IMG/VR virus record: IMGVR_UViG_2681813262_000007
DNA from: a virus
Lineage: Duplodnaviria > Heunggongvirae > Uroviricota > Caudoviricetes
Length of the DNA stretch: 16,402 bases
Reading direction: 5' to 3' (one strand)
The translations under genes and the position numbers were made by a program. Positions 1 to 12,495 of the stretch are shown here, in pieces. The notes under the pieces were generated by a model that saw only the letters and a program-made list of their open reading frames with translations, did not search any database and was not told where the DNA came from. Numbering within the stretch: position 1 is the stretch's first letter; the number at the start of each line of letters is the position of its first letter.

Positions 1-125
1 GAACCGTTCTGACAGCTTCGGCTTTGAACTCTTTAGAGTAACGTTGGGTTTTTCTGCTCATTATTAGCTCCTTCTGATGCCATTCTATTTCAGGAAGGAG
101 TGTCCGTTAAACTCAGGCTACCTCA
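1..125 (-). mobile_element. Outward end of an IS3-family insertion sequence: terminal inverted repeat plus first 20 codons of transposase OrfA, truncated by the window edge
   Basis: Minus-strand ATG at 61..59 preceded by GGAG RBS; translation MSRKTQRYSKEFKAEAVRTV resembles IS3-family OrfA N-termini (helix-turn-helix region). Minus-strand sequence from 125 begins TGAGGTAGCCTGAGTTTAACGG, consistent with an IS3-type terminal IR (TG...). Only about 60 nt of coding sequence is visible, so the family call is by recollection. Confidence 0.5.
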
Positions 126-132
126 TCCTTCC

Positions 133-161
133 AGGCCCATCCGCTCCGGTGGGCCTTTTTA
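133..161 (+). terminator. Rho-independent terminator-like hairpin immediately outside the IS end
   Basis: 7-bp GC-rich stem aggccca/tgggcct (133-139 / 150-156), 10-nt loop, followed by a T5 run (156-160). Confidence 0.35.
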
Positions 162-408
162 CTGCAGAAAACAGGTTCCCCGTTAAATGCTATGTTGCTC
201 ACAATTCAGTAAGTTGACAGTTGCCTGTCAGACTGGGCATTTGTTAAAAAAATTTCGCATGGTGAATCCCCCTGAGCGGAGGGGCGACTGGTGACGGTAT
301 AATCTCTGATTATCAAAACGAGAATGACGCGGGTTTAGTGGCACCGGGCTGAACTCACCGGGAGGCACCCGGCACCATGTGCATGATGATACAGATACGC
401 GGCTTTAG

Positions 409-466
409 CCCCTCTCCGGAGGGGTTTTCTTGTGGGCAAAAAAAGCCCGCGCTGGGAGACGCGGGC
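409..466. terminator. Pair of back-to-back GC hairpins: plus-strand terminator (409-431) and a possible minus-strand terminator (438-466)
   Basis: cccctc-tccg-gagggg followed by ttttctt (plus strand). Then A7 + gcccgcg-ctgggaga-cgcgggc, which on the minus strand reads as GC stem + T7. Confidence 0.4.
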
Positions 467-659
467 GGCAAGGAATAAACAATAAAACGTGAAGTAATAT
501 TTCAGCTGGCGAATAATACCCCATAGTAATCACTCTGCGCAACTGCGCGGTCTTTTTCGAATTGCGGGCTGTCGTCTCTCTTCTGCCATTGTCCTGTAAC
601 TTCCGGACTTCAGCCCGCTCCTTATTTTACTCACAATATTATCCCGGCCGGGAGGATTC

Positions 660-2441
660 ATGGCATTTAAACACTATGACGTGGTCAGGGCGGCATCGCC
701 GTCAGACCTTGCGAAACGACTGACACAAAAACTGAAGGAGGGCTGGCAGCCGTTTGGTAGTCCGGTGGCCATAACCCCTTATACCCTGATGCAGGCGATT
801 GCAGCAGAAGGTGATGTGGTCGTCAGTGGTGCAACTGAGCCGGAGTGGTACTACGTCATCGTACTGGCCGGGCAATCCAATGCCATGGCTTACGGTGAAG
901 GTCTTCCGCTTCCGGATTCATACGATGCGCCCCATCCGCGCATTAAGCAACTGGCCCGTCGTAACACAGTGACTCCCGGTGGTGAAGTATGCGTATTTAA
1001 CGACATCATTCCTGCTGACCATTGTCTGCATGATGTTCAGGATATGAGTACGATTAACCATCCCCGGGCTGACCTGAGCAAAGGGCAGTACGGCTGTGTC
1101 GGACAGGGCTTACATATTGCCAAAAAACTGCTTCCGTATATCCCTAATAATGCGGGGATCCTGCTGGTACCATGCTGTCGTGGTGGTTCGGCATTCACCC
1201 AGGGCACGGAGGGGACATTCAGCGAGTCCACGGGAGCCAGTCAGGATTCGGCTCGCTGGGGAGTGGGTAAGCCGTTATATCAGGATCTGCTTTTCCGCAC
1301 GAAGGCAGCATTGCAGAAAAACCCGAAAAACGTTTTGCTGGCGATATGCTGGATGCAGGGGGAATTCGATATGACGAATGCCAGTTACGCCCAGCAGCCA
1401 GCAGCATTTCTTGCAATGGTACAGCAGTTCCGTGCTGACCTTGCCGGGCTGGCAGCGCAGTGTCACGGTGGAAGTCCGGCATCAGTCCCCTGGATTTGTG
1501 GCGACACGACATACGCGTGGAAACAAGAACACGGTACGCAATATGAAGTGGTATATGGTGCATATAAAGGTAAAGAATCCCAGCAGATTTATTTTGTTCC
1601 CTTTATGACCGATGGTAGCGGAGTTAATACACCGACAAACAACCCGTCAGAAGATCCTGATATTGCCGGGTCTGGTTATTACGGTTCGGCATCCCGAACG
1701 AACAAAAACTGGGTATCATCAAATCGCCCGACGCATTTCAGCTCATGGGCGCGTCGTGGCATTATTCCCGATCGTATGGCAACTGCTATTCTGAACGTAG
1801 CCGGTCGCACCTTAGCCTTCATTAGTGGTAAGGCACCGGAAATCAAACCCTCGCCCGGCGGCGACACGCCATCGGGGCCGTCTGAAGATGCATCCATTCA
1901 GTTGTCAGATGGTGTATTTAAGATCACCAAGCAGAGCAATAAAGCCTGGTCCCTGACGCGCCCGGTGGATGACGCAGTCTCCCTGCTGACACGGGGTGGC
2001 AGACTGAGCTGTAAGTTTCGACTGTCAGGCGCACTGACCAACAACCAGTTCGGTCTGGGAATTTATCTGTATACCGATGTAGCGTTACCTGACGTCGTGG
2101 CGATGACCGGGACTGGTAACCCGTTCCTGATGTCGTTCTTCACCCAGACCACAGACGGCAAACTGAATCTGATGCATCACAAGAAAGCCGGAAACACAAA
2201 GTTGGGCGAGTTCGGGAATTACAGTAACGACTGGCAGACGCTGGAGCTGGTGTTCACCGCCGGCAGTGCCACGGTTACTCCGAAACTGAATGGAGTGGCT
2301 GGCCCGGCATTCCAGGTCATAAAAGACAGTCTGACAGTGGGACTAAATGCACTGACGCTGACGGATATTACCAAAAATGCAACGTATGGCGTTGAGATAG
2401 AAAGTCTGGTGCTGGAGATAAATGCACCGGCATCATCATAA
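660..2441 (+). CDS. nanS: Prophage-encoded sialate O-acetylesterase (NanS-p-like): N-terminal DUF1737-like domain, SASA/SGNH-type esterase core, C-terminal ~200-aa putative carbohydrate-binding domain
   Basis: 593-aa ORF with GGAGG RBS (651-655). Contains the GQSN serine motif ([16 protein letters not shown]) and a later WMQGEFD block typical of sialate O-acetylesterases. Architecture and position (upstream of the holin) match NanS-p morons of E. coli lambdoid and Stx prophages. Family assignment is from memory, not a search. Confidence 0.8.
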
Positions 2442-2525
2442 AAAGTGAGCCAGTCAAATGGAAGGTATCGTTAAACTCACCGGTAGTGTCAGTGGGTCGT
2501 CTGAGACGCCTGCATGAGTTATCAG

Positions 2526-2557
2526 AGCCATCAGTACTTAACTGGTGGCTTTTTTAT
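2526..2557 (+). terminator. Rho-independent terminator between the esterase gene and the holin (tR'-like position)
   Basis: 10-bp stem agccatcagt/actggtggct (one G-U pair), 5-nt loop, followed by tttttt (2551-2556). Confidence 0.5.
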
Positions 2558-2590
2558 TGTTGTCAGCTTCCGGATAACGGGAGACGGGGT

Positions 2591-2806
2591 ATGTACCAGA
2601 TGGAAAAAATCACAACAGGTGTGTCATACACCACGTCAGCGGTGGGAACGGGCTACTGGTTCCTGCAGTTGCTGGACAGGGTTTCCCCGTCTCAGTGGGC
2701 GGCAATAGGCGTGCTGGGGAGTCTGCTGTTTGGGCTGCTGACATATCTGACTAACCTGTATTTCAAAATCAGAGAGGACCGTCGTAAGGCTGCACGGGGA
2801 GAGTAA
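2591..2806 (+). CDS. S: Class II pinholin (phage 21 S21 / Stx-phage S family), dual-start motif MYQM
   Basis: 71 aa, two TMDs (SAR-like TMD1 [22 protein letters not shown]; TMD2 [23 protein letters not shown]), C-terminal [13 protein letters not shown] nearly identical to remembered S21. GGGAGACGGGG RBS upstream. The 2486 start in the ORF track is an upstream extension across the terminator and is not credible. Confidence 0.85.
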
Positions 2807-2810
2807 TTCA

Positions 2811-3161
2811 ATGACTCAAAACTATGAACTGATTGTGAAAGGGATCCGCAATTTTGAGAATAAAGTTACGGTAACTTTAGCGTTACGGGACAAAAAACGC
2901 TTTGACGGTGAAATTTTTGACCTGGACATCTCGCTGGACCGTGTTGAAGGTGCCGCGCTGGAGTTTTATGAGGCAGCAGCCAGAAGGAGCATCAGACAGG
3001 TCTTCCTGGATGTTGCTGCCGGGTTATGTGAAGGGGATGAGCAGTCGCCGGAAAAGCGCCCCGTAATTTTAGAGGCGCAGAATGTGTGGATAACCTACAA
3101 AGGAAAGCTACCAGGAAGAATTACTGGTTCTCTGAAGACTCCTCCGGAATCACAACCTTAA
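2811..3161 (+). CDS. Hypothetical 116-aa soluble charged protein inserted between holin and endolysin; possibly YdfR/DUF1327-like
   Basis: ATG 4 nt after the holin stop, GGGAGA RBS, no TM segment. A gene of similar size occupies the same holin-lysozyme slot in E. coli prophage Qin (ydfR) as I recall it; sequence homology not verified. Confidence 0.65.
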   Translation: MTQNYELIVKGIRNFENKVTVTLALRDKKRFDGEIFDLDISLDRVEGAALEFYEAAARRSIRQVFLDVAAGLCEGDEQSPEKRPVILEAQNVWITYKGKLPGRITGSLKTPPESQP

Positions 3162-3224
3162 GTCACTGACCAGAACAGATAAACCTGTCCGTGGGCAGAA
3201 ACCGATAAATCCTGATAAATATCC

Positions 3225-3758
3225 ATGAACGCAAAAATCAGATACGGCCTGTCGGCTGCCGTTCTGGCACTGATTGCCGTCGGTGCGCCCGCGCCTGATA
3301 TTCTCGACCAGTTTCTGGATGAAAAAGAGGGTAACCACACTACGGCATACCGCGATGGTTCCGGCATCTGGACCATCTGTCGGGGGGCCACGATGGTGGA
3401 TGGAAAACCCGTTTTTCCCGGTATGAAACTGTCGAAGGAAAAATGCGACCAGGTCAACGCCATTGAGCGTGATAAGGCGCTGGCATGGGTGGAGAAAAAC
3501 ATCAAAGTGCCATTGAGCGAACCCCAGAAAGCGGGGATCGCGTCATTCTGTCCGTACAACATTGGTCCCGGTAAGTGTTTCCCGTCGACGTTTTATAAAC
3601 GAATTAATGCAGGTGATCGCAGGGGAGCGTGTGAGGCGATTCGCTGGTGGATTAAGGACGGTGGCAGAGACTGCCGTATTCGTTCAAACAACTGCTACGG
3701 TCAGGTATCCCGTCGTGACCAGGAGAGTGCGCTGGCGTGCTGGGGTATCGACAGATAA
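3225..3758 (+). CDS. R: SAR endolysin (T4-lysozyme-like muramidase, GH24, R21 type)
   Basis: 177 aa. N-terminal weakly hydrophobic Gly/Ala-rich signal-anchor-release domain (LSAAVLALIAVGAPAP); catalytic E-X8-D-X5-T triad (E GNHTTAYR D GSGIW T). Pairs functionally with the pinholin. Confidence 0.9.
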   Translation: MNAKIRYGLSAAVLALIAVGAPAPDILDQFLDEKEGNHTTAYRDGSGIWTICRGATMVDGKPVFPGMKLSKEKCDQVNAIERDKALAWVEKNIKVPLSEPQKAGIASFCPYNIGPGKCFPSTFYKRINAGDRRGACEAIRWWIKDGGRDCRIRSNNCYGQVSRRDQESALACWGIDR

Positions 3759-3850
3759 GCAGAATATTTTGCTGAAAAATAAGGCATGGCCACGCGGGCG
3801 GATAACACGAAATCCTGCGAACTGGCGAAACGTAAGTGAATAAAAGTAAA

Positions 3851-3887
3851 AACCCCGTTTGTTGGCAGCAAGCGGGGTTTTGTTTTT
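3851..3887 (+). terminator. Strong rho-independent terminator downstream of the endolysin
   Basis: 11-bp stem aaccccgtttg/caagcggggtt (one G-U), 7-nt loop, followed by ttgttttt. Confidence 0.6.
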
Positions 3888-3952
3888 ATGGCAGTAAGCT
3901 ATGGGAGGCTGCCTTGATTGATTTTAGCAAACTGATTAGGGAGTTGCGACTC

Positions 3953-4048
3953 ATGATTAGTCAATTACCAAACTGGAAATTTTTGCTGGTCTGGAGCATC
4001 CCTTTTTTATGGGTAGTATCCCAGTTAATTGTGGCAATTAAGGGGTAG
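3953..4048 (+). CDS. Putative 31-aa hydrophobic peptide (MISQLPNWKFLLVWSIPFLWVVSQLIVAIKG)
   Basis: ATG with AGGGAG RBS 9 nt upstream; single predicted TM helix. Caveat: the locus is T-rich, which favours hydrophobic codons by chance. Confidence 0.3.
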   Translation: MISQLPNWKFLLVWSIPFLWVVSQLIVAIKG

Positions 4049-4050
4049 CT

Positions 4051-4182
4051 ATGTCAGACAAACTCATAACGCCGGCAAAGGTCCTGTGTGTGATTGTCGG
4101 TATTTCATTTTCACTAATGCTGGTTGCTCTTTTTCTGTCCCTCGCCTGGGTGATGTTGTCTTCGTCGGGGCTGCTGGGGTGA
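4051..4182 (+). CDS. Putative 43-aa single-TM peptide (MSDKLITPAKVLCVIVGISFSLMLVALFLSLAWVMLSSSGLLG)
   Basis: ATG 2 nt after the previous stop with AAGGGG RBS; clean TM helix. Too short for the 60-aa ORF track and in a different frame from track ORF 4029..4301. Confidence 0.4.
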   Translation: MSDKLITPAKVLCVIVGISFSLMLVALFLSLAWVMLSSSGLLG

Positions 4183-4184
4183 CA

Positions 4185-4301
4185 GTGACTGATGACATCA
4201 GCAGAGCGCTGGCTTTTGCTATTAAGTGGGTGGCTGTTGGTATTGCTGTGTCTCCGATGCTATATGGGCTGGCAAAACTGGTCATTGCGCTGAAATCGTG
4301 A
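4185..4301 (+). CDS. Putative 38-aa hydrophobic peptide, GTG start (MTDDISRALAFAIKWVAVGIAVSPMLYGLAKLVIALKS); paralog of the next peptide
   Basis: GTG 2 nt after the previous stop. N-terminus and core align with the 4313..4399 peptide (MTDDISRALAFAIKWVAV vs [18 protein letters not shown]), and the conservation is at the protein level in this frame. Confidence 0.4.
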   Translation: MTDDISRALAFAIKWVAVGIAVSPMLYGLAKLVIALKS

Positions 4302-4312
4302 ACTTTAAAAAG

Positions 4313-4399
4313 ATGAGTGCTGAACTTATTCGGGCAATGGCATTTGCCATTCGTATTGTGGCCATTGCTGTTCTGGTCTGGGCAATCCGTTGGTGGTGA
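4313..4399 (+). CDS. Putative 28-aa hydrophobic peptide ([28 protein letters not shown]); paralog of the previous peptide
   Basis: ATG start; stop falls 1 nt before the Rz ATG; paralogy with 4185..4301. Weak RBS. Confidence 0.4.
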
Positions 4400-4400
4400 T

Positions 4401-4868
4401 ATGAACCGTGTTCTGTGTGTGGTGATTATTGTCATGCTGGTGGCCTGTGGTGCGCTTAGTCTGGGGCTGAATCATTACCGTGATAACGCCATTACCTACA
4501 AAGCCCAGCGCGACAAAAATGTCAGAGAACTGAAGCTGGCGAACGCGGCAATTACTGACATGCAGATGCGTCAGCGTGATGTTGCTGCGCTCGATGCAAA
4601 ATACTCGAGGGAATTAGCCGATGCGAGAGCTGAAAATGAAACTCTTCGCGCTGACGTTGCCGCTGGTCGTAAGCGCCTGCGTATCAACGCCACCTGTCCA
4701 GGTCCCGTGCGTGAAGCCACCGGCACCGCCCGCGTGGATAATGCAACCGGCCCCCGACTGGCAGACACCGCTGAACGGGATTATTTCACCCTCAGAGAGC
4801 GGCTGATGACGATGCACAAGCAACTGGAAGGGGCGCAGGAATATATCCGCACTCAGTGCCTGAAATAA
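4401..4868 (+). CDS. Rz: Rz i-spanin (inner-membrane spanin subunit)
   Basis: 155 aa; N-terminal TM ([18 protein letters not shown]) and coiled-coil periplasmic domain. Closely resembles remembered lambda Rz ([17 protein letters not shown]...[24 protein letters not shown]). The 4317 start in the track is an upstream extension. Confidence 0.9.
4621..4806 (+). CDS. Rz1: Rz1 o-spanin (outer-membrane lipoprotein), embedded in the +1 frame of Rz
   Basis: 61 aa with signal peptide and lipobox (LVVSAC), proline-rich mature region ([30 protein letters not shown]) matching lambda Rz1. An alternative start at 4636 is possible. Confidence 0.85.
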
Positions 4869-5302: not shown

Positions 5303-5851
5303 ATGAACGTCAATAAGAAAAAACTGGCCGATATTTTTGGCGTTGATGTCAGGACCATCACCGCCTGGCAGAGTCAGGGGTTACCACTAGTTTCTGGTGG
5401 AGGGAAAGGGACTGAATCAGTTTTTGATACAACTGCTGCCATTCAGTGGTATGCGCAGAGGGAAGCTGATATTGAAAACGAAAAACTCCGTAAAGAGATC
5501 GAGGATTTGAGGGCTGCCAGCGAATCAGACCTTCAGCCCGGCACCATTGATTACGAACGTTACCGACTGACGAAGGCACAGGCCGATGCACAGGAGCTGA
5601 AAAATGCTCGTGAGGAAGGCCTTGTCCTCGAGACGGAGTTATTTACCTACATCTTTCAGCGAGTGGCACAGAATATATCAGGGATCCTTGTCCGTGTCCC
5701 TCAGACACTGCAGCGTAAATACCCTGATATATCACCCGTACATCTTGATGCTGTGAAAACTGAAATCGCGAAAGCATCCGATGTGGCTTCTGAAGCCGGT
5801 GAGAATGTGCGCAGGTGGATTGATGATTTCAGACGAACTGAGGGCGGCTAA
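5303..5851 (+). CDS. nu1: Terminase small subunit (gpNu1)
   Basis: 182 aa; N-terminal winged-HTH region [29 protein letters not shown] and [29 protein letters not shown] closely match lambda Nu1. GGGGGAG RBS. Confidence 0.95.
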
Positions 5852-7751
5852 TTCTGCAGGAGCGATAGCAACCGGCCTCCTTGCGCTAAAAATTCCTGTC
5901 CCTCTGACGACAGTTCAGTGGGCAGATCGACATTATTACCTTCCGAAAGAGTCATCTTACACCCCGGGGCGGTGGGAAACACTGCCGTTTCAGGTTGCCA
6001 TCATGAACAGCATGGGGAATGACCGGATCCGCACTGTTAATCTGATTAAATCTGCCCGTGTTGGTTATACAAAGATGTTGCTGGGAGTGGAGGCTTATTT
6101 TATTGAGCATAAATCACGCAACAGCCTTCTTTTCCAGCCCACGGATTCTGCTGCTGAAGATTTTATGAAATCTCATGTGGAACCCACGATCAGGGATGTG
6201 CCGGTTTTACTCGATCTTGCACCGTGGTTTGGGCGTAAACATCGTGATAATACCCTCACGCTGAAACGTTTTTCATCGGGCGTGGGCTTCTGGTGCCTGG
6301 GCGGGGCTGCCGCTAAAAACTACCGTGAAAAATCCGTGGACGTGGTCTGCTATGACGAACTTTCCTCGTTCGAACCGGATGTCGAAAAAGAGGGTTCGCC
6401 AACCCTGCTTGGGGATAAACGTATTGAGGGCTCTGTATGGCCCAAATCCATTCGCGGCTCGACGCCTAAAATCAAAGGCACCTGCCAGATCGAAAAAGCG
6501 GCCAACGAGTCGGCGCATTTCATGCGTTTTTATGTGCCCTGCCCACACTGTGGGGAGGAGCAGTATCTGAAATTTGGCGATGAATCCACGCCTTTTGGCC
6601 TTAAATGGGAGAAGGACAGCCCCGAAAGCGTTTTCTACCTCTGTGAACATCATGGCTGCGTGATCCATCAGTCTGAGCTTGACCAGAGCAACGGGCGGTG
6701 GATCTGTGAAAACACGGGGATGTGGACCCGTGACGGTCTGACGTTTTTCAGCGCCGCGGATAATGAAATTCCGCCGCCGCGCTCCATCACGTTCCATATC
6801 TGGACGGCGTACAGTCCGTTCACCACCTGGGTACAGATAGTCTATGACTGGCTGGATGCACTGAAAGATCCCAACGGCCTGAAAACCTTTGTGAACACCA
6901 CGCTGGGCGAGACCTGGGAAGAGGCCGTGGGCGAAAAACTCGATCACCAGGTACTGATGGATAAGGTCGTGCATTACACGGCGGCGGTGCCAGCCCGGGT
7001 GGTTTATCTGACGGCGGGCATTGACTCGCAGCGAAACCGTTTTGAGATGTATGTCTGGGGATGGGCACCGGGAGAGGAAGCTTTTCTGGTGGATAAAATC
7101 ATCATTATGGGCCGTCCCGATGAGGAAGAGACGCTGTTACGTGTGGATGCGGCGATCAACAAAAAATACTGCCATGCAGACGGAACCGAAATGACCATTT
7201 CCCGTGTCTGCTGGGACACCGGGGGGATCGATGGTGAAATTGTCTATCAGAGGTCAAAAAAACACGGTGTTTTCCGGGTGCTGCCGGTAAAAGGCGCATC
7301 TGTCTATGGCAAGCCGGTGATCACCATGCCGAAAACCCGCAATCAGCGGGGCGTGTATCTGTGTGAAGTGGGGACGGACACCGCAAAAGAAATTCTCTAT
7401 GCCCGTATGAAAGCCGATCCCACGCCTGCGGATGAAGCCACGTCGTATGCCATCCATTTTCCTGATGATCCGGAGATTTTTTCGCAGACAGAGGCGCAGC
7501 AACTGGTCGCGGAAGAGCTTGTGGAGAAGTGGGAAAAAGGAAAGATGCGTCTGCTGTGGGATAACAAAAAGCGGCGTAACGAAGCGCTGGACTGCCTGGT
7601 GTATGCCTATGCGGCATTACGTGTGTCCGTGCAACGCTGGCAGCTTGATCTGGCTGTACTGGCAAAATCCCGGGAAGAAGAGACGACCCGGCCAACCCTT
7701 AAAGAACTGGCAGCGAAGCTGTCCGGAGGAGTGAATGGTTACAGTCGCTGA
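5823..7751 (+). CDS. A: Terminase large subunit (gpA)
   Basis: Near-collinear identity to remembered lambda gpA ([25 protein letters not shown], [30 protein letters not shown]...). Start chosen at the ATG at 5823 to give a lambda-like overlap with Nu1; the ORF is open from 5781, so the start is uncertain by up to 42 nt. Confidence 0.9.
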
Positions 7752-7941
7752 ACTGCAGGCGCTGCGTCAGGCGCGCCTTGATTTATTAACCGGTAAACGG
7801 GTGGTGTCTGTCCAGAAAGATGGTCGCAGAATTGAATATACGGCGGCTTCTCTGGATGAGCTTAACCGGGCGATCAATGATGCGGAGTCGGTACTGGGGA
7901 CAACCCGACGTCGCCGTCGTCCGCTGGGAGTGAGGTTATGA
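7735..7941 (+). CDS. W: Head-tail connector/joining protein gpW
   Basis: 68 aa; LTGKRVVSVQKDGRRIEYTAASL ... RRRRRP matches lambda gpW. Confidence 0.9.
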   Translation: MVTVAELQALRQARLDLLTGKRVVSVQKDGRRIEYTAASLDELNRAINDAESVLGTTRRRRRPLGVRL

Positions 7942-9530
7942 AACGAACGCCTGTCCTGATTGATGTGAACGGCGTTCCGCTTCGTGAGAGTCTCAGCTAC
8001 AACGGGGGCGGCGCAGGATTTGGCGGGCAAATGGCGGAGTGGTTGCCACCGGCGCAGAGTGCCGATGCAGCCCTGCTGCCTGCGTTGCGTCTGGGGAATG
8101 CCCGGGCAGATGATCTGGTGCGCAATAACGGGATAGCGGCTAATGCGGTGGCCCTGCATAAGGATCATATTGTCGGGCATATGTTTCTGATCAGCTACCG
8201 TCCGAACTGGCGCTGGCTGGGGATGCGGGAGACTGCGGCAAAAAGTTTTGTCGATGAGGTGGAGGCGGCCTGGTCAGAATACGCAGAAGGGATGTTTGGC
8301 GAGATCGACGTGGAAGGGAAACGCACGTTTACGGAATTTATCCGTGAAGGTGTGGGCGTTCATGCGTTTAACGGCGAAATCTTTGTGCAGCCGGTCTGGG
8401 ATACGGAAACCACGCAGTTATTCCGTACGCGTTTTAAAGCCGTGAGTCCGAAACGGGTGGACACGCCAGGACGCGGTATCGGGAACCGTTTTCTGCGGGC
8501 CGGTGTGGAGGTTGATCGATATGGCCGTGCCGTTGCGTACCATATCTGTGAGGATGATTTTCCTCGCTCCGGGAGTGGACGATGGGAACGGATCCCGCGT
8601 GAACTACCCACCGGGCGTCCGGCCATGCTGCATATTTTCGAGCCGGTGGAGGACGGGCAGACCCGTGGAGCCAATCAGTTTTACAGCGTTATGGAACGGC
8701 TGAAGATGCTGGATTCCCTGCAGGCAACACAGCTTCAGTCGGCCATAGTGAAGGCGATGTATGCAGCGACGATTGAAAGTGACCTTGATACCGAAAAGGC
8801 CTTTGAATATATCGCCGGTGCGCCGCAGGGGCAGAAGGATAATCCGCTTATTAATATTCTGGATAAGTTCTCCACCTGGTATGACACGAATAGCGTGACG
8901 CTGGGCGGTGTCAAAATTCCGCACCTTTTCCCCGGTGATGATCTGAAACTTCAGACCGCGCAGGATTCAGACAATGGATTTTCGGCGCTTGAACAGGCGC
9001 TGCTGCGGTATATCGCCGCCGGTCTTGGCGTTTCCTACGAACAGTTGTCCCGTGATTACTCGAAGGTCAGTTACTCAAGTGCCCGCGCATCCGCCAATGA
9101 GTCGTGGCGCTATTTTATGGGGCGGCGAAAATTTATTGCGTCCCGGCTGGCCACGCAGATGTTTTCCTGCTGGCTGGAAGAGGCACTTCTTCGGGGGATT
9201 ATTCGTCCGCCACGGGCACGGTTTGATTTTTATCAGGCGCGATCAGCCTGGTCACGGGCTGAGTGGATTGGAGCCGGAAGAATGGCCATTGACGGGCTCA
9301 AGGAGGTTCAGGAATCAGTGATGCGCATTGAGGCCGGACTGAGCACGTATGAGAAAGAGCTGGCGCTGATGGGCGAGGATTATCAGGACATTTTCCGCCA
9401 GCAGGTCAGGGAATCTGCAGAGCGGGAAAAAGCCGGACTCTCACGTCCGGTGTGGATAGCGCAGGCGTATCAGCAGCAGATAGCGGAGAGTCGCAGGCCG
9501 GAAGAGGAGACAACACCACGTGAGACGTAA
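7938..9530 (+). CDS. B: Portal protein (gpB)
   Basis: 530 aa in the lambda gpB position and of matching size; ATGA overlap with the W stop. Confidence 0.9.
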   Translation: MKRTPVLIDVNGVPLRESLSYNGGGAGFGGQMAEWLPPAQSADAALLPALRLGNARADDLVRNNGIAANAVALHKDHIVGHMFLISYRPNWRWLGMRETAAKSFVDEVEAAWSEYAEGMFGEIDVEGKRTFTEFIREGVGVHAFNGEIFVQPVWDTETTQLFRTRFKAVSPKRVDTPGRGIGNRFLRAGVEVDRYGRAVAYHICEDDFPRSGSGRWERIPRELPTGRPAMLHIFEPVEDGQTRGANQFYSVMERLKMLDSLQATQLQSAIVKAMYAATIESDLDTEKAFEYIAGAPQGQKDNPLINILDKFSTWYDTNSVTLGGVKIPHLFPGDDLKLQTAQDSDNGFSALEQALLRYIAAGLGVSYEQLSRDYSKVSYSSARASANESWRYFMGRRKFIASRLATQMFSCWLEEALLRGIIRPPRARFDFYQARSAWSRAEWIGAGRMAIDGLKEVQESVMRIEAGLSTYEKELALMGEDYQDIFRQQVRESAEREKAGLSRPVWIAQAYQQQIAESRRPEEETTPRET

Positions 9531-11025
9531 TCTTTCACACATTATTGCAGCAGCATTCAATGAACCGCTGCTTCTGGAGCCCGCCTATGCGCGGGTTTTC
9601 TTTTGCGCGCTGGGGCGCGAGATGGGGGCAGCAAGTCTTTCGGTACCGCAACAGCAGGTACAGCTTGATGCTCCCGGGATGCTGGCTGAAACGGACGAGT
9701 ACATGGCCGGAGGTAAACGACCGGCCCGTGTTTACCGGGTGGTGAACGGTATTGCGGTACTGCCGGTGACCGGCACGCTGGTGCACCGGCTGGGGGGGAT
9801 GCGGCCATTTTCCGGAATGACTGGCTATGACGGCATTGTCGCCTGTCTTCAGCAGGCAATGGCAGATAGCCAGGTGCGGGGCATACTGCTGGACATTGAC
9901 AGTCCGGGCGGGCAGGCCGCCGGCGCGTTTGACTGCGCTGACATGATTTACCGCCTCCGGCAGCAGAAGCCGGTCTGGGCACTGTGTAATGACACGGCCT
10001 GTTCTGCGGCCATGCTGCTGGCGTCGGCCTGCTCCCGACGGCTGGTTACCCAGACATCCCGTATCGGTTCCATTGGCGTGATGATGAGCCATGTCAGCTA
10101 TGCCGGTCATCTGGCGCAGGCCGGTGTGGATATCACGCTGATTTACTCAGGGGCGCACAAGGTGGATGGCAATCAGTTTGAAGCGTTGCCGGCAGAGGTT
10201 CGCCAGGACATGCAGCAGCGGATTGATGCGGCGCGCCGGATGTTTGCCGAAAAAGTGGCGATGTTTACCGGTCTGTCTGTTGATGCAGTCACGGGAACAG
10301 AGGCCGCTGTTTTTGAAGGTCAGTCCGGCATTGAGGCCGGGCTGGCGGATGAATTAATCAATGCGTCGGATGCCATCAGTGTGATGGCCACGGCGCTGAA
10401 CAGTAATGTCAGAGGAGGCACTATGCCGCAATTAACTGCAACGGAAGCCGCCGTGCAGGAGAACCAGCGAGTGATGGGGATCCTGACATGCCAGGAAGCG
10501 AAAGGACGTGAACAGCTTGCCACGATGCTGGCAGGGCAACAGGGCATGAGCGTTGAACAGGCCCGGGCGATTCTGGCCGCGGCGGCACCGCAGCAGCCGG
10601 TGGCATCCGCGCAGAGTGAAGCCGATCGCATTATGGCGTGTGAAGAAGCGAACGGTCGTGAACAACTGGCGGCAACGCTGGCGGCGATGCCGGAGATGAC
10701 GGTGGAAAAAGCCCGCCCGATCCTGGCGGCTGCACCACTGGCGGATGCCGGGCCCTCACTTCGTGATCAGATCATGGCCCTGGATGAGGCAAAAGGGGCA
10801 GAAGCGCAGGCTGAAAAACTGGCGGCCTGCCCGGGAATGACCGTGGAGAACGCCCGGGCTGTGCTGGCTGCGGGATCAGGTAAGGCCGAACCGGTCTCTG
10901 CATCCACAACCGCCCTGTTTGAACATTTCATGGCGAATCATTCACCGGCAGCGGTGCGGGGTGGCGTGTCACAGACGTCAGCAGACGGTGATGCGGACGT
11001 GAAAATGCTCATGGCCATGCCATGA
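9520..11025 (+). CDS. C: Head maturation protease / minor capsid protein C (S49/ClpP-like peptidase) with an extended C-terminal scaffold region
   Basis: 501 aa; N-terminal 300 aa match lambda gpC (AFNEPLLLEPAYARVFFCAL, NGIAVLPVTGTLV, GILLDIDSPGG, RRLVTQTSRIGSIGVMM, ITLIYSGAHKVDGN). The C-terminus carries three tandem ~45-aa repeats. Confidence 0.9.
   Translation: MRRNLSHIIAAAFNEPLLLEPAYARVFFCALGREMGAASLSVPQQQVQLDAPGMLAETDEYMAGGKRPARVYRVVNGIAVLPVTGTLVHRLGGMRPFSGMTGYDGIVACLQQAMADSQVRGILLDIDSPGGQAAGAFDCADMIYRLRQQKPVWALCNDTACSAAMLLASACSRRLVTQTSRIGSIGVMMSHVSYAGHLAQAGVDITLIYSGAHKVDGNQFEALPAEVRQDMQQRIDAARRMFAEKVAMFTGLSVDAVTGTEAAVFEGQSGIEAGLADELINASDAISVMATALNSNVRGGTMPQLTATEAAVQENQRVMGILTCQEAKGREQLATMLAGQQGMSVEQARAILAAAAPQQPVASAQSEADRIMACEEANGREQLAATLAAMPEMTVEKARPILAAAPLADAGPSLRDQIMALDEAKGAEAQAEKLAACPGMTVENARAVLAAGSGKAEPVSASTTALFEHFMANHSPAAVRGGVSQTSADGDADVKMLMAMP
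10423..11025 (+). CDS. nu3: Scaffolding protein Nu3-like, translated in-frame from an internal start within C
   Basis: Internal ATG at 10423 preceded by a strong AGAGGAGG SD (10411-10418) with 4-nt spacing, analogous to lambda Nu3 nested in C; 200 aa including the three repeats. Confidence 0.6.
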   Translation: MPQLTATEAAVQENQRVMGILTCQEAKGREQLATMLAGQQGMSVEQARAILAAAAPQQPVASAQSEADRIMACEEANGREQLAATLAAMPEMTVEKARPILAAAPLADAGPSLRDQIMALDEAKGAEAQAEKLAACPGMTVENARAVLAAGSGKAEPVSASTTALFEHFMANHSPAAVRGGVSQTSADGDADVKMLMAMP

Positions 11026-11061
11026 AGTCAGTGCTGACCATCAATATGAGGTTTTAACAAA

Positions 11062-11409
11062 ATGGTGACGAAAACCATCACTGAACAGCGTGCGGAAGTA
11101 CGTATTTTTGCTGGTAATGATCCGGCTCATACCGCCACAGGCAGCAGCGGGATTTCTTCTGCAACACCGGCTCTGACGCCCCTGATGCTGGATGAAGCCA
11201 CCGGGAAACTGGTGGTCTGGGATGGACAGAAAGCCGGTAGTGCGGTTGGCATACTGGTACTGCCGCTTGAAGGCACAGAGACGGTGCTGACCTATTACAA
11301 GTCGGGGACCTTTGCGACGGAGGCAATCCGCTGGCCTGACAGTGTGGATGAACACAAAAAGGCAAATGCCTTTGCCGGCACAGCCCTGAGTCACGCGGCT
11401 CTGCCATAA
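11062..11409 (+). CDS. D: Head decoration protein (gpD)
   Basis: 115 aa; NDPAHTAT, TPLMLD, KLVVWDG, VGIL, YKSGTF, AFAGTA match lambda gpD. Confidence 0.9.
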   Translation: MVTKTITEQRAEVRIFAGNDPAHTATGSSGISSATPALTPLMLDEATGKLVVWDGQKAGSAVGILVLPLEGTETVLTYYKSGTFATEAIRWPDSVDEHKKANAFAGTALSHAALP

Positions 11410-11417
11410 CACGTTAT

Positions 11418-11437
11418 CAGGCCACCATGGTGGCCTG
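11418..11437. repeat. Perfect 20-bp palindrome (caggccaccatggtggcctg) in the D-E intergenic region
   Basis: Directly visible in the sequence; could form an RNA hairpin or protein-binding site. Confidence 0.5.
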
Positions 11438-11466
11438 ACTGATTTCTGAATGAAAGGAACTGATTT

Positions 11467-12495
11467 ATGGGATTGTTTACGACCCGCCAGTTACTCGGTT
11501 ATACCGAACAAAAAGTGAAATTCCGTGCGCTGTTTCTGGAGCTGTTTTTCCGCCGTACGGTGAATTTCCACACCGAAGAGGTGATGCTGGACAAAATTAC
11601 CGGAAAAACGCCGGTGGCGGCCTATGTCTCCCCGATCGTTGAAGGAAAAGTGCTTCGCCATCGCGGTGGTGAAACCCGCGTGTTACGTCCGGGCTACGTC
11701 AAGCCGAAACACGAATTTAATTACCAGCAGGCGGTTGAGCGCCTTCCTGGTGAAGATCCGGCTCAGCTGAACGACCCGGCCTACCGTCGTCTGCGTATCA
11801 TTACCGATAACCTCAAACAGGAAGAGCACGCCATTGTCCAGGTGGAAGAAATGCAGGCGGTGAATGCCGTGCTGTATGGCAAATACACCATGGAAGGGGA
11901 TCAGTTTGATACTGTCGAGGTGGATTTCGGGCGCTCTGAAGGAAATAACATTGAGCAGGCTGACGGTAAAAAATGGTCTGAGCAGGACCGTGATACGTTT
12001 GATCCGACGCATGATATTGACCTCTACTGCGATCAGGCCAGCGGCCTTGTGAATATCGCCATTATGGACGGTACGGTCTGGCGTCTGCTGAATGGCTTTA
12101 AGCTGTTCCGCGAAAAACTGGATACCCGTCGCGGCTCAAATTCACAACTCGAAACGGCAGTGAAAGATCTGGGCGCAGTGGTGTCCTTCAAGGGGTATTA
12201 CGGCGATCTGGCCATTGTGGTGGCGAAAACGTCTTATGTGGCAGAGGACGGTACCGAAAAACGTTATCTGCCGGAGGGCATGCTGGTGCTGGGGAATACG
12301 GCGGCAGAGGGGATTCGTTGCTATGGTGCCATTAAGGATGCACAGGCGTTGTCTGAAGGAGTGGTGGCTTCTTCCCGTTACCCGAAACACTGGCTGACCG
12401 TGGGCGATCCGTCCTGTGAATTCACCATGACGCAGTCCGCTCCGCTGATGGTGCTGCCGGATCCGGATGAGTTTGTGGTGGTACAGGTGAAATAA
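11467..12495 (+). CDS. E: Major capsid protein (gpE)
   Basis: 342 aa; YVSPIV, PGYVKPKHE, VEEMQAV, EKLDTRRGSNS-LETAVKDLG, MVLGNT, QSAPLM-L-DPDEFV-VQ match lambda gpE. Confidence 0.95.
   Translation: MGLFTTRQLLGYTEQKVKFRALFLELFFRRTVNFHTEEVMLDKITGKTPVAAYVSPIVEGKVLRHRGGETRVLRPGYVKPKHEFNYQQAVERLPGEDPAQLNDPAYRRLRIITDNLKQEEHAIVQVEEMQAVNAVLYGKYTMEGDQFDTVEVDFGRSEGNNIEQADGKKWSEQDRDTFDPTHDIDLYCDQASGLVNIAIMDGTVWRLLNGFKLFREKLDTRRGSNSQLETAVKDLGAVVSFKGYYGDLAIVVAKTSYVAEDGTEKRYLPEGMLVLGNTAAEGIRCYGAIKDAQALSEGVVASSRYPKHWLTVGDPSCEFTMTQSAPLMVLPDPDEFVVVQVK

Follow-up and report, generated by a model that had tools for sequence, protein, structure and literature searches.

The open reading frame at positions 660 to 2,441 of the stretch of 16,402 nucleotides analysed here (the window, taken at its full length) had been read in an earlier note as a NanS-p-type sialate O-acetylesterase 'moron' at the site that holds the toxin genes in Stx phages, which raises the questions of what this gene encodes, how its position relates to stx, and whether this particular copy still serves a function. 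[quoted passage not shown] Published work already covers the gene family, where its members lie, the fact that non-Stx prophages carry them too, what the enzymes do and part of the structure, and the private deletion and IS600 are minor features at the level of the strain. The annotation as such adds little, since nanS-p has been well described and characterised biochemically, part of the protein has been crystallised, and E. coli genomes with a near-identical copy number in the hundreds. What can be corrected, however, are the criteria by which the family is recognised, namely a Ser-His dyad instead of a catalytic triad, and a location of stx upstream of nanS-p instead of its replacement by nanS-p.

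Domain architecture and active site

The gene at 660..2441 (+) is a real open reading frame of 593 codons with an ATG start that is preceded by the Shine-Dalgarno sequence GGGAGGA, and its product of 593 aa is assigned to phrog_143 of the PHROGs collection with 1092 bits. Three Pfam domains, all with matches exceeding the curated cut-offs, make up the protein. These are an N-terminal DUF1737 (PF08410, E = 1e-15; 666..809 (+), residues 3-50), which according to allele comparison is the 'ITPYTLMQ' loop allele with Tyr41, SASA (PF03629, E = 1e-12; residues 66-262) and DUF6645 (E = 2e-19; residues 443-553). In the protein search against NanS and NanS-p that had been suggested in the earlier note, the SGNH type II or SASA catalytic domain as a whole (834..1796 (+), residues 59-379) matches the crystal structure of NanS/YjhS (3PT5) with an E-value of 4e-122 and 57% identity, and the C-terminal domain matches that of a phage NanS-p (6YP6, E = 1e-29; see below). 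The initial reading as a NanS-p-type sialate O-acetylesterase with a GQSN motif and a DUF1737-like N-terminus is thus borne out by the reading frame, by Pfam and by both structural matches. That the core might be most similar to another, unrelated SGNH hydrolase family, which would have spoken against this reading, is excluded, NanS being the best match.

With respect to the active site, the GQSN motif comprises residues 71-74 (870-881), and in the 3PT5 alignment Ser73 as the nucleophile, His359 as the general base and Gln72 of the oxyanion hole align with Ser19, His301 and Gln18 of NanS. Gln72 and Ser73 (873-878), Q233-G234-E235 (1356-1364) and His359 (1734-1736) are invariant among 24 family members. 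The latter residue lies in a block IV which reads RPTH as in phage 86, a variant noted by Pascal et al. for the NanS-p of this Stx2 phage (PMC10462455). NanS itself uses Ser19 and His301, with Gln18 in the oxyanion hole, and has no block-V Asp (PMC9063846, PMC9487903). Judged by the alignment, the esterase is likewise a Ser-His dyad enzyme without Asp. A missing Ser-His-Asp arrangement, proposed at the outset as a sign against the assignment, was therefore mis-specified, as it would wrongly reject genuine NanS enzymes.

In a Foldseek search with the model of the undeleted homologue, the two best matches in the PDB were 3pt5 (top) and 6yp6. The catalytic domain has a mean pLDDT of 62-65 in the AlphaFold models of both the deleted and the intact protein, owing to the shallow alignment of 24 sequences; the models were used for the C-terminal domain only, and the active-site argument therefore rests on the sequence alignment with 3PT5.

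Several nanS-p alleles, some of them from non-Stx prophages, are reported to have esterase activity, to support growth on Neu5,9Ac2 and to be induced together with the late genes (PMC8065619, PMC10462455). By analogy with these close homologues, upon induction the gene may be transcribed from pR' as one of the late genes, with Q acting as antiterminator; since Q, pR' and the tRNAs would lie upstream of IS600 and outside the window, we infer transcription within the late operon from relatives only. As the N-terminus of the esterase lacks a hydrophobic signal sequence, the protein would be released at lysis and/or be carried on virions. It might then de-O-acetylate the Neu5,9Ac2 of mucin at the 9-position, and the sialic acid would thereby become usable by sialidases and the Nan pathway, to the benefit of the bacterial population.

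The C-terminal deletion and the IS600 element

The catalytic domain is followed by an interdomain linker rich in Pro, Ser and Gly (1827..1895 (+), residues 390-412), which is evident from alignments and has a pLDDT below 50 in both models, and by a lectin-like jelly roll (DUF6645; 1896..2438 (+)). Although the C-terminal domain had been described as uncharacterised, a homologue has been crystallised, i.e., the C-terminal jelly roll of the phi24B NanS-p (6YP6), which is matched by residues 419-589 (E = 1e-29) and to which the window domain is ~34% identical. The model of the intact homologue superimposes on 6YP6 with a TM score of 0.84 and an rmsd of 2.2 Å over 217 columns, and the structures that match it next best are L-type lectins and the lectin domain with which the V. 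cholerae sialidase binds sialic acid. It has been proposed that the jelly roll targets the enzyme to glycans (PMC8065619), and four aromatic residues of phi24B, Y510, Y515, Y540 and F611, have been put forward as candidates for carbohydrate binding (PMC10462455). Three of these positions are aromatic in the window protein (F464, Y469 and F494), the fourth being Val560.

Compared with the allele of 617 aa, the window protein lacks IRTISLLPTAGDAAAQGWSIKNGG after Ser412, which, as mapped by alignment, amounts to the first 24 residues of the jelly roll, with the linker ending at the junction. At the DNA level, this corresponds to a clean in-frame loss of 72 bp at 1895|1896 with 2 bp of microhomology, and besides the deletion the protein differs from the APEC O18 allele by two substitutions, L->V560 and A->T575. 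Three of the lost residues, S417, G429 and W430, are each shared by at least 90% of 24 homologues. When the intact protein is modelled, the lost segment forms, with a pLDDT of 74-92, a strand at 414-418 and the greater part of a hairpin at 431-440, and according to this model the first two beta-strands of the jelly roll (414-418 and 431-433) fall, like the conserved Trp, in the deleted stretch. The shortened domain is still modelled at a pLDDT of ~80 by AlphaFold, which is a poor judge of stability. Because of the loss of the Trp and of these two predicted strands, the deletion has probably weakened or destabilised the substrate-targeting jelly roll while leaving the catalytic core intact. Since NanS is active without any C-terminal domain, the esterase core should in turn stay active.

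The deletion is private to the window copy, having been found nowhere else in the searched sets. Exact scans of species-representative genomes and of metagenome contigs gave no match to the junction, the exact protein of 593 aa was not found in a collection of ~15 billion proteins, the additional 72 bp are present in all of the top E. coli matches listed, and the best 80 viral loci are all undeleted.

Different in-frame internal deletions occur in other singleton nanS-p alleles (P0010, P0012, P0015, P0019, P0024 and P0026), some of which remove catalytic parts including the His region, and one viral nanS-p locus carries an early frameshift (L038 10001-10080). Sporadic decay therefore appears to be common among the multiple prophage copies of nanS-p.

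On its upstream side, the window begins with the left end of an IS600 element (IS3 family; 1..125 (-)), which is 97-99% identical to annotated E. coli IS600 copies and whose translated orfA runs from 61 off the left edge (MSRKTQRYSKEFKAEAVRTV). Homology to the prophage backbone begins at 125, so that the end of the element lies 535 bp upstream of the esterase. Not one complete E. coli genome, out of 5,426, spans this junction of IS600 and prophage, and an exact scan of species-representative genomes gave no match to it, which would agree with an origin from Shigella or from a draft genome. IS600 would therewith stand between the gene and wherever Q and pR' lie.

From the loss of conserved residues and of two predicted strands, and from the proximity of IS600, it might be concluded that the window copy is a decaying and non-functional allele, in which a misfolded C-terminal domain inactivates or destabilises the enzyme and IS600 severs its Q-dependent transcription. 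This possibility, which we consider a real one though not the probable one, would also agree with the sporadic in-frame deletions and frameshifts of other singleton alleles, and with a junction missing from the representative genomes, the metagenome contigs and the listed E. coli matches as well as a protein missing from the ~15 billion. However, the frame is open through all 593 codons and every catalytic residue has been kept, and chromosomal NanS functions without a C-terminal domain, 3PT5 representing the core alone. Terminators inserted into the path of a Q-modified polymerase are generally read through. Only two substitutions, besides the deletion, set the protein apart from the APEC O18 allele, and any loss of function would therefore have to be recent. 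With the gene taken as a NanS-p esterase of an stx-negative late operon, the deletion and IS600 fit a slowly decaying prophage, and the natural in-frame deletion allele could offer a ready-made test of the contribution of the jelly roll.

The DUF1737 allele and the virion

A further alternative arises from the N-terminal domain. It was recently reported that gp84 of phi24B, a NanS-p, is an abundant virion protein which decorates the capsid via DUF1737, whereby DUF1737 hexamers plug the central hexons of the T=9 podovirus capsid via the loop residue Tyr42, and which is later processed (bioRxiv 10.64898/2026.04.10.717836). By analogy, the label 'moron' given to the window gene is questionable. 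Of the autonomous cassette that this label implies, with a promoter and a terminator of its own, the downstream terminator is present; on the + strand of 1-3300, a consensus scan, being weak evidence either way, revealed no sigma-70-like promoter. Following this line of thought, the esterase would primarily be a structural protein for the decoration of the capsid and not a 'moron' of benefit to the lysogen, with DUF1737 docking to the head and displaying the esterase and the lectin for, e.g., adherence to mucus or de-acetylation of receptor glycans.

The DUF1737 of the window is another allele than that of phi24B, as its loop is three residues shorter, the linker is shorter as well, and the SISSP motif is missing; the features that characterise the gp84 type (Tyr42 loop, Gly54-SISSP, T=9 933W-like capsid) are not found in the window. 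Phage 86 has a phi24B-type DUF1737 but is 98-100% identical to the window protein over residues 151-400, and this switch at the N-terminus points to a mosaic joint at the domain boundary. In 160 related viral loci (L004-L163, IMG/VR), which stem from two allele-biased searches, the alleles were classed by loop motif (window-type TPYT[LM]MQ versus phi24B-type GYGAEF) and compared with the packaging module downstream. The window-type loop is accompanied by 51 siphovirus-type modules (33 lambda-type and 18 YYZ-type) and by none of the 933W type, in contrast to 26 modules of the 933W type and a single one of the YYZ type for the phi24B-type loop. After dereplication, the counts are 44:0 versus 1:24 (p ~1e-17, Fisher's test, without phylogenetic correction). 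Chimeras that combine a window-type loop with a phi24B-type C-terminal domain have siphovirus modules in all seven of seven cases, and phage 86 represents the reciprocal case; therefore, the virion type follows the N-terminal allele and not the C-terminal domain, even though the latter is physically nearer.

Capsid decoration as the primary role thus finds an argument not only in the phi24B hexamers on the capsid hexons (bioRxiv 10.64898/2026.04.10.717836) but also in a loop allele that tracks the virion module (51:0 versus 1:26), which in the seven chimeras and phage 86 goes along with the N-terminus. Nevertheless, we consider it unlikely for the window prophage, whose head is of the lambda gpE/gpD type and not a T=9 podovirus capsid as in phi24B, and in whose allele the anchor loop is shorter and no SISSP processing motif is present. 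In addition, the window-type allele occurs together with two capsid proteins that have no detectable sequence similarity to each other, gpE and the YYZ-type HK97-like MCP, which argues against a specific docking. Finally, as the association is without phylogenetic correction, linkage within the backbone and a gene-conversion patch extending from SASA to the holin could mimic it. The more general notion that DUF1737 is a capsid-docking module with an allele matched to the type of virion, even in lambda-headed and toxin-free prophages, is likewise rather doubtful. If true, however, the 'NanS-p moron' would be a head-decoration protein showing a sialate esterase and a lectin on the particle, and the allele-module association (44:0 versus 1:24) together with the chimeras would be the evolutionary footprint of capsid matching. 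The allele-module loci offer comparative support for the recent claim that ties DUF1737 to the phage capsid, and if this link is true, the numerous nanS-p genes of pathogenic E. coli would have to be seen in a different light.

Genomic neighbourhood, stx and known relatives

Returning to the reading as a NanS-p esterase of a late operon, the gene lies upstream of the lysis cassette (2591..4868 (+), Pfam) as initially described, and is directly followed by a P21-type class II holin (2591..2806 (+)), DUF1327/YdfR (2811..3161 (+)), a lysozyme (3225..3758 (+)) and Rz (4401..4868 (+)) with the embedded Rz1 (4621..4806 (+)). The gap between endolysin and Rz contains two or three short open reading frames (3836-4301 (+)) for hydrophobic, membrane-like peptides of 70, 90 and 43 aa, in a position taken in the Stx phages 86 and YYZ-2008 by the anti-repressor gene ant. 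Further downstream resides a packaging and head module of the lambda type (5303..12495 (+), Pfam), consisting of Nu1, gpA, the lambda portal, an S49 protease, gpD and gpE. There are no tRNA genes in the 16.4-kb window.

Upstream, the esterase has as its neighbour a gene for a prophage sRNA of the STnc100 family (228..437 (+)), which is related to PasD and matches Rfam RF02076 over its full length (161 bits versus a gathering score of 47). On the other side, the spacer that separates the esterase from the holin (2442..2590 (+)) contains the terminator already noted, a hairpin of 12 pairs with a U-run at 2524-2552 in the consensus scan. The RNA of 2442-2560, which ends in this 12-bp hairpin, has a minimum free energy of -38 kcal/mol (z = -3.2), with 0 of 200 shuffles being as stable. 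The 149 bp of the spacer are conserved at 98-99% in ten phage records; in the comparison with YYZ-2008, which contains PasA (bioRxiv 10.64898/2026.05.13.724894), only the terminator region is similar, with one compensatory pair. The spacer has no match in Rfam. A recurrent order of pasD/STnc100, sialic acid esterase, pasA/pasC, holin and lysozyme has been described (bioRxiv 10.64898/2026.05.13.724894), and as the spacer occupies the position reported for the Hfq-binding sRNAs PasA/PasC, the terminator at 2524-2552 may belong to an sRNA gene as its 3' end, making the structured RNA a candidate of the PasA/PasC type on the basis of fold, conservation and position.

A match to OmrA-B on the minus strand at 438-526 (25 bits, E = 0.08) is below the gathering score and was dismissed as probably due to chance; it is adjoined by a terminator-like hairpin on the same strand (466-445).

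With respect to stx, blastn and tblastn searches with stx1A/B and stx2A/B over the 16.4-kb window gave matches at chance level only, which confirms the absence of toxin genes stated previously. The view that the esterase occupies the toxin-gene position of Stx phages, in turn, has to be revised. Phage 86 has stx2A and stx2B first, then the esterase and the holin (stx2AB at 1-1241, esterase at 1727-3622), and the Stx1 phage YYZ-2008 has Q ahead of stx1A and stx1B, which are again followed by the esterase and the holin; therefore, nanS-p is a conserved downstream neighbour of stx and not an occupant of its slot. DNA homologous to what follows stx in both phages starts at ~199 of the window, i.e., 46-54 bp past the stxB stop codons, while 125-198 matches the APEC O18 prophage and has no match to the Stx phages. 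Within this segment, which fills the stx slot of the stx-negative relatives, the consensus scan revealed a terminator-like hairpin of 9 pairs followed by TTTTT (133..156 (+)). The stx-negative APEC O18 prophage has a second STnc100-like copy of ~70% identity just after its tRNA cluster (L002 5606-5820), and the stx slot of this lineage is therefore filled by a duplicated sRNA-like element.

A scar of stx is seen neither in the window nor in the corresponding stretch of the APEC O18 prophage, and stxA/stxB between Q/tRNAs and nanS-p are not found within the window, the sequence left of 125 being IS600. Among the viral loci, stx lies upstream in 2 of 73 with the window-type loop and in 27 of 60 with the phi24B-type loop. 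The idea of a toxin-lost Stx phage derivative, in which IS600 would mark an IS-mediated deletion of stx, was rejected as highly improbable: although the end of IS600 (125) lies only ~75 bp left of the start of post-stx homology and IS elements between stx and nanS-p have been reported for some Stx2a phages (PMC10462455), there is no stx remnant in the window, 125-198 is collinear at 98-99% identity with IS-free stx-negative prophages (tRNAs, STnc100-like copy, segment), stx precedes only those 2 of 73 loci with the window allele, and the head is of the lambda type as opposed to the 933W type in 26 of 27 alleles of the phi24B type, the class most often having stx upstream. Because of this collinearity, IS600 has entered a backbone that was already stx-free. 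Of the two origins offered in the earlier note, an stx-negative relative or a toxin-lost derivative, the latter has no support, the same stx-free arrangement being widespread.

At least 80% of window 1-2600 is covered at one place in 720 of the 5,426 complete E. coli genomes. These relatives carry undeleted copies of 99% identity, mostly stx-negative and annotated as 'SASA family carbohydrate esterase', in the context Q, tRNA, esterase and holin. Upstream of the position equivalent to 125, the 99% identical backbone of the stx-negative relatives continues with the diverged STnc100-like copy, tRNA Ile/Arg/Arg, a methyltransferase and Q.

Amongst the closest known systems is the undeleted 617-aa allele of stx-negative lambdoid prophages (e.g., APEC O18, WP_000874516.1; cluster P0001 with 3,161 member sequences), which is 99% identical. 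Prophages of this type share with the window the flanks from 125 through the holin and the lambda-type head module, and differ in that the window lacks the 24 residues and has the substitutions at 560 and 575, and in that IS600 is found where the relatives run on to tRNA Ile/Arg/Arg, the methyltransferase and Q. Chromosomal NanS (YjhS, 3PT5) has in common with the esterase the SGNH type II fold of its 57% identical core, the Ser/His dyad, the oxyanion Gln and the lack of a catalytic Asp; unlike the window esterase, it has neither DUF1737 nor jelly roll, and its gene belongs to the nan regulon instead of a prophage late operon.

The NanS-p proteins of 933W (L0105/z1466), phi24B (vb_24B_21/gp84) and phage 86 (gp03) have the same order of DUF1737, SASA and DUF6645 and the same position, with the stx/tRNA region on one side and holin S on the other. 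With 617-657 aa they are longer than the 593 aa of the window protein, which is shorter because of its private deletion of 24 aa where the jelly roll begins. The phi24B/933W-type DUF1737 has Tyr42 and Gly54-SISSP, in contrast to the siphovirus-associated 'ITPYTLMQ' and the short linker of the window, and at ~34% identity to the C-terminal domain of phi24B the window protein keeps three of the four proposed binding aromatics as aromatics, V560 being the exception. The gp03 protein of phage 86, by comparison, is 98-100% identical to the window protein over residues 151-400 and 451-550 and shares RPTH in block IV; in this phage, as in YYZ-2008, the esterase is preceded by stx, which is missing upstream of its counterpart in the window.
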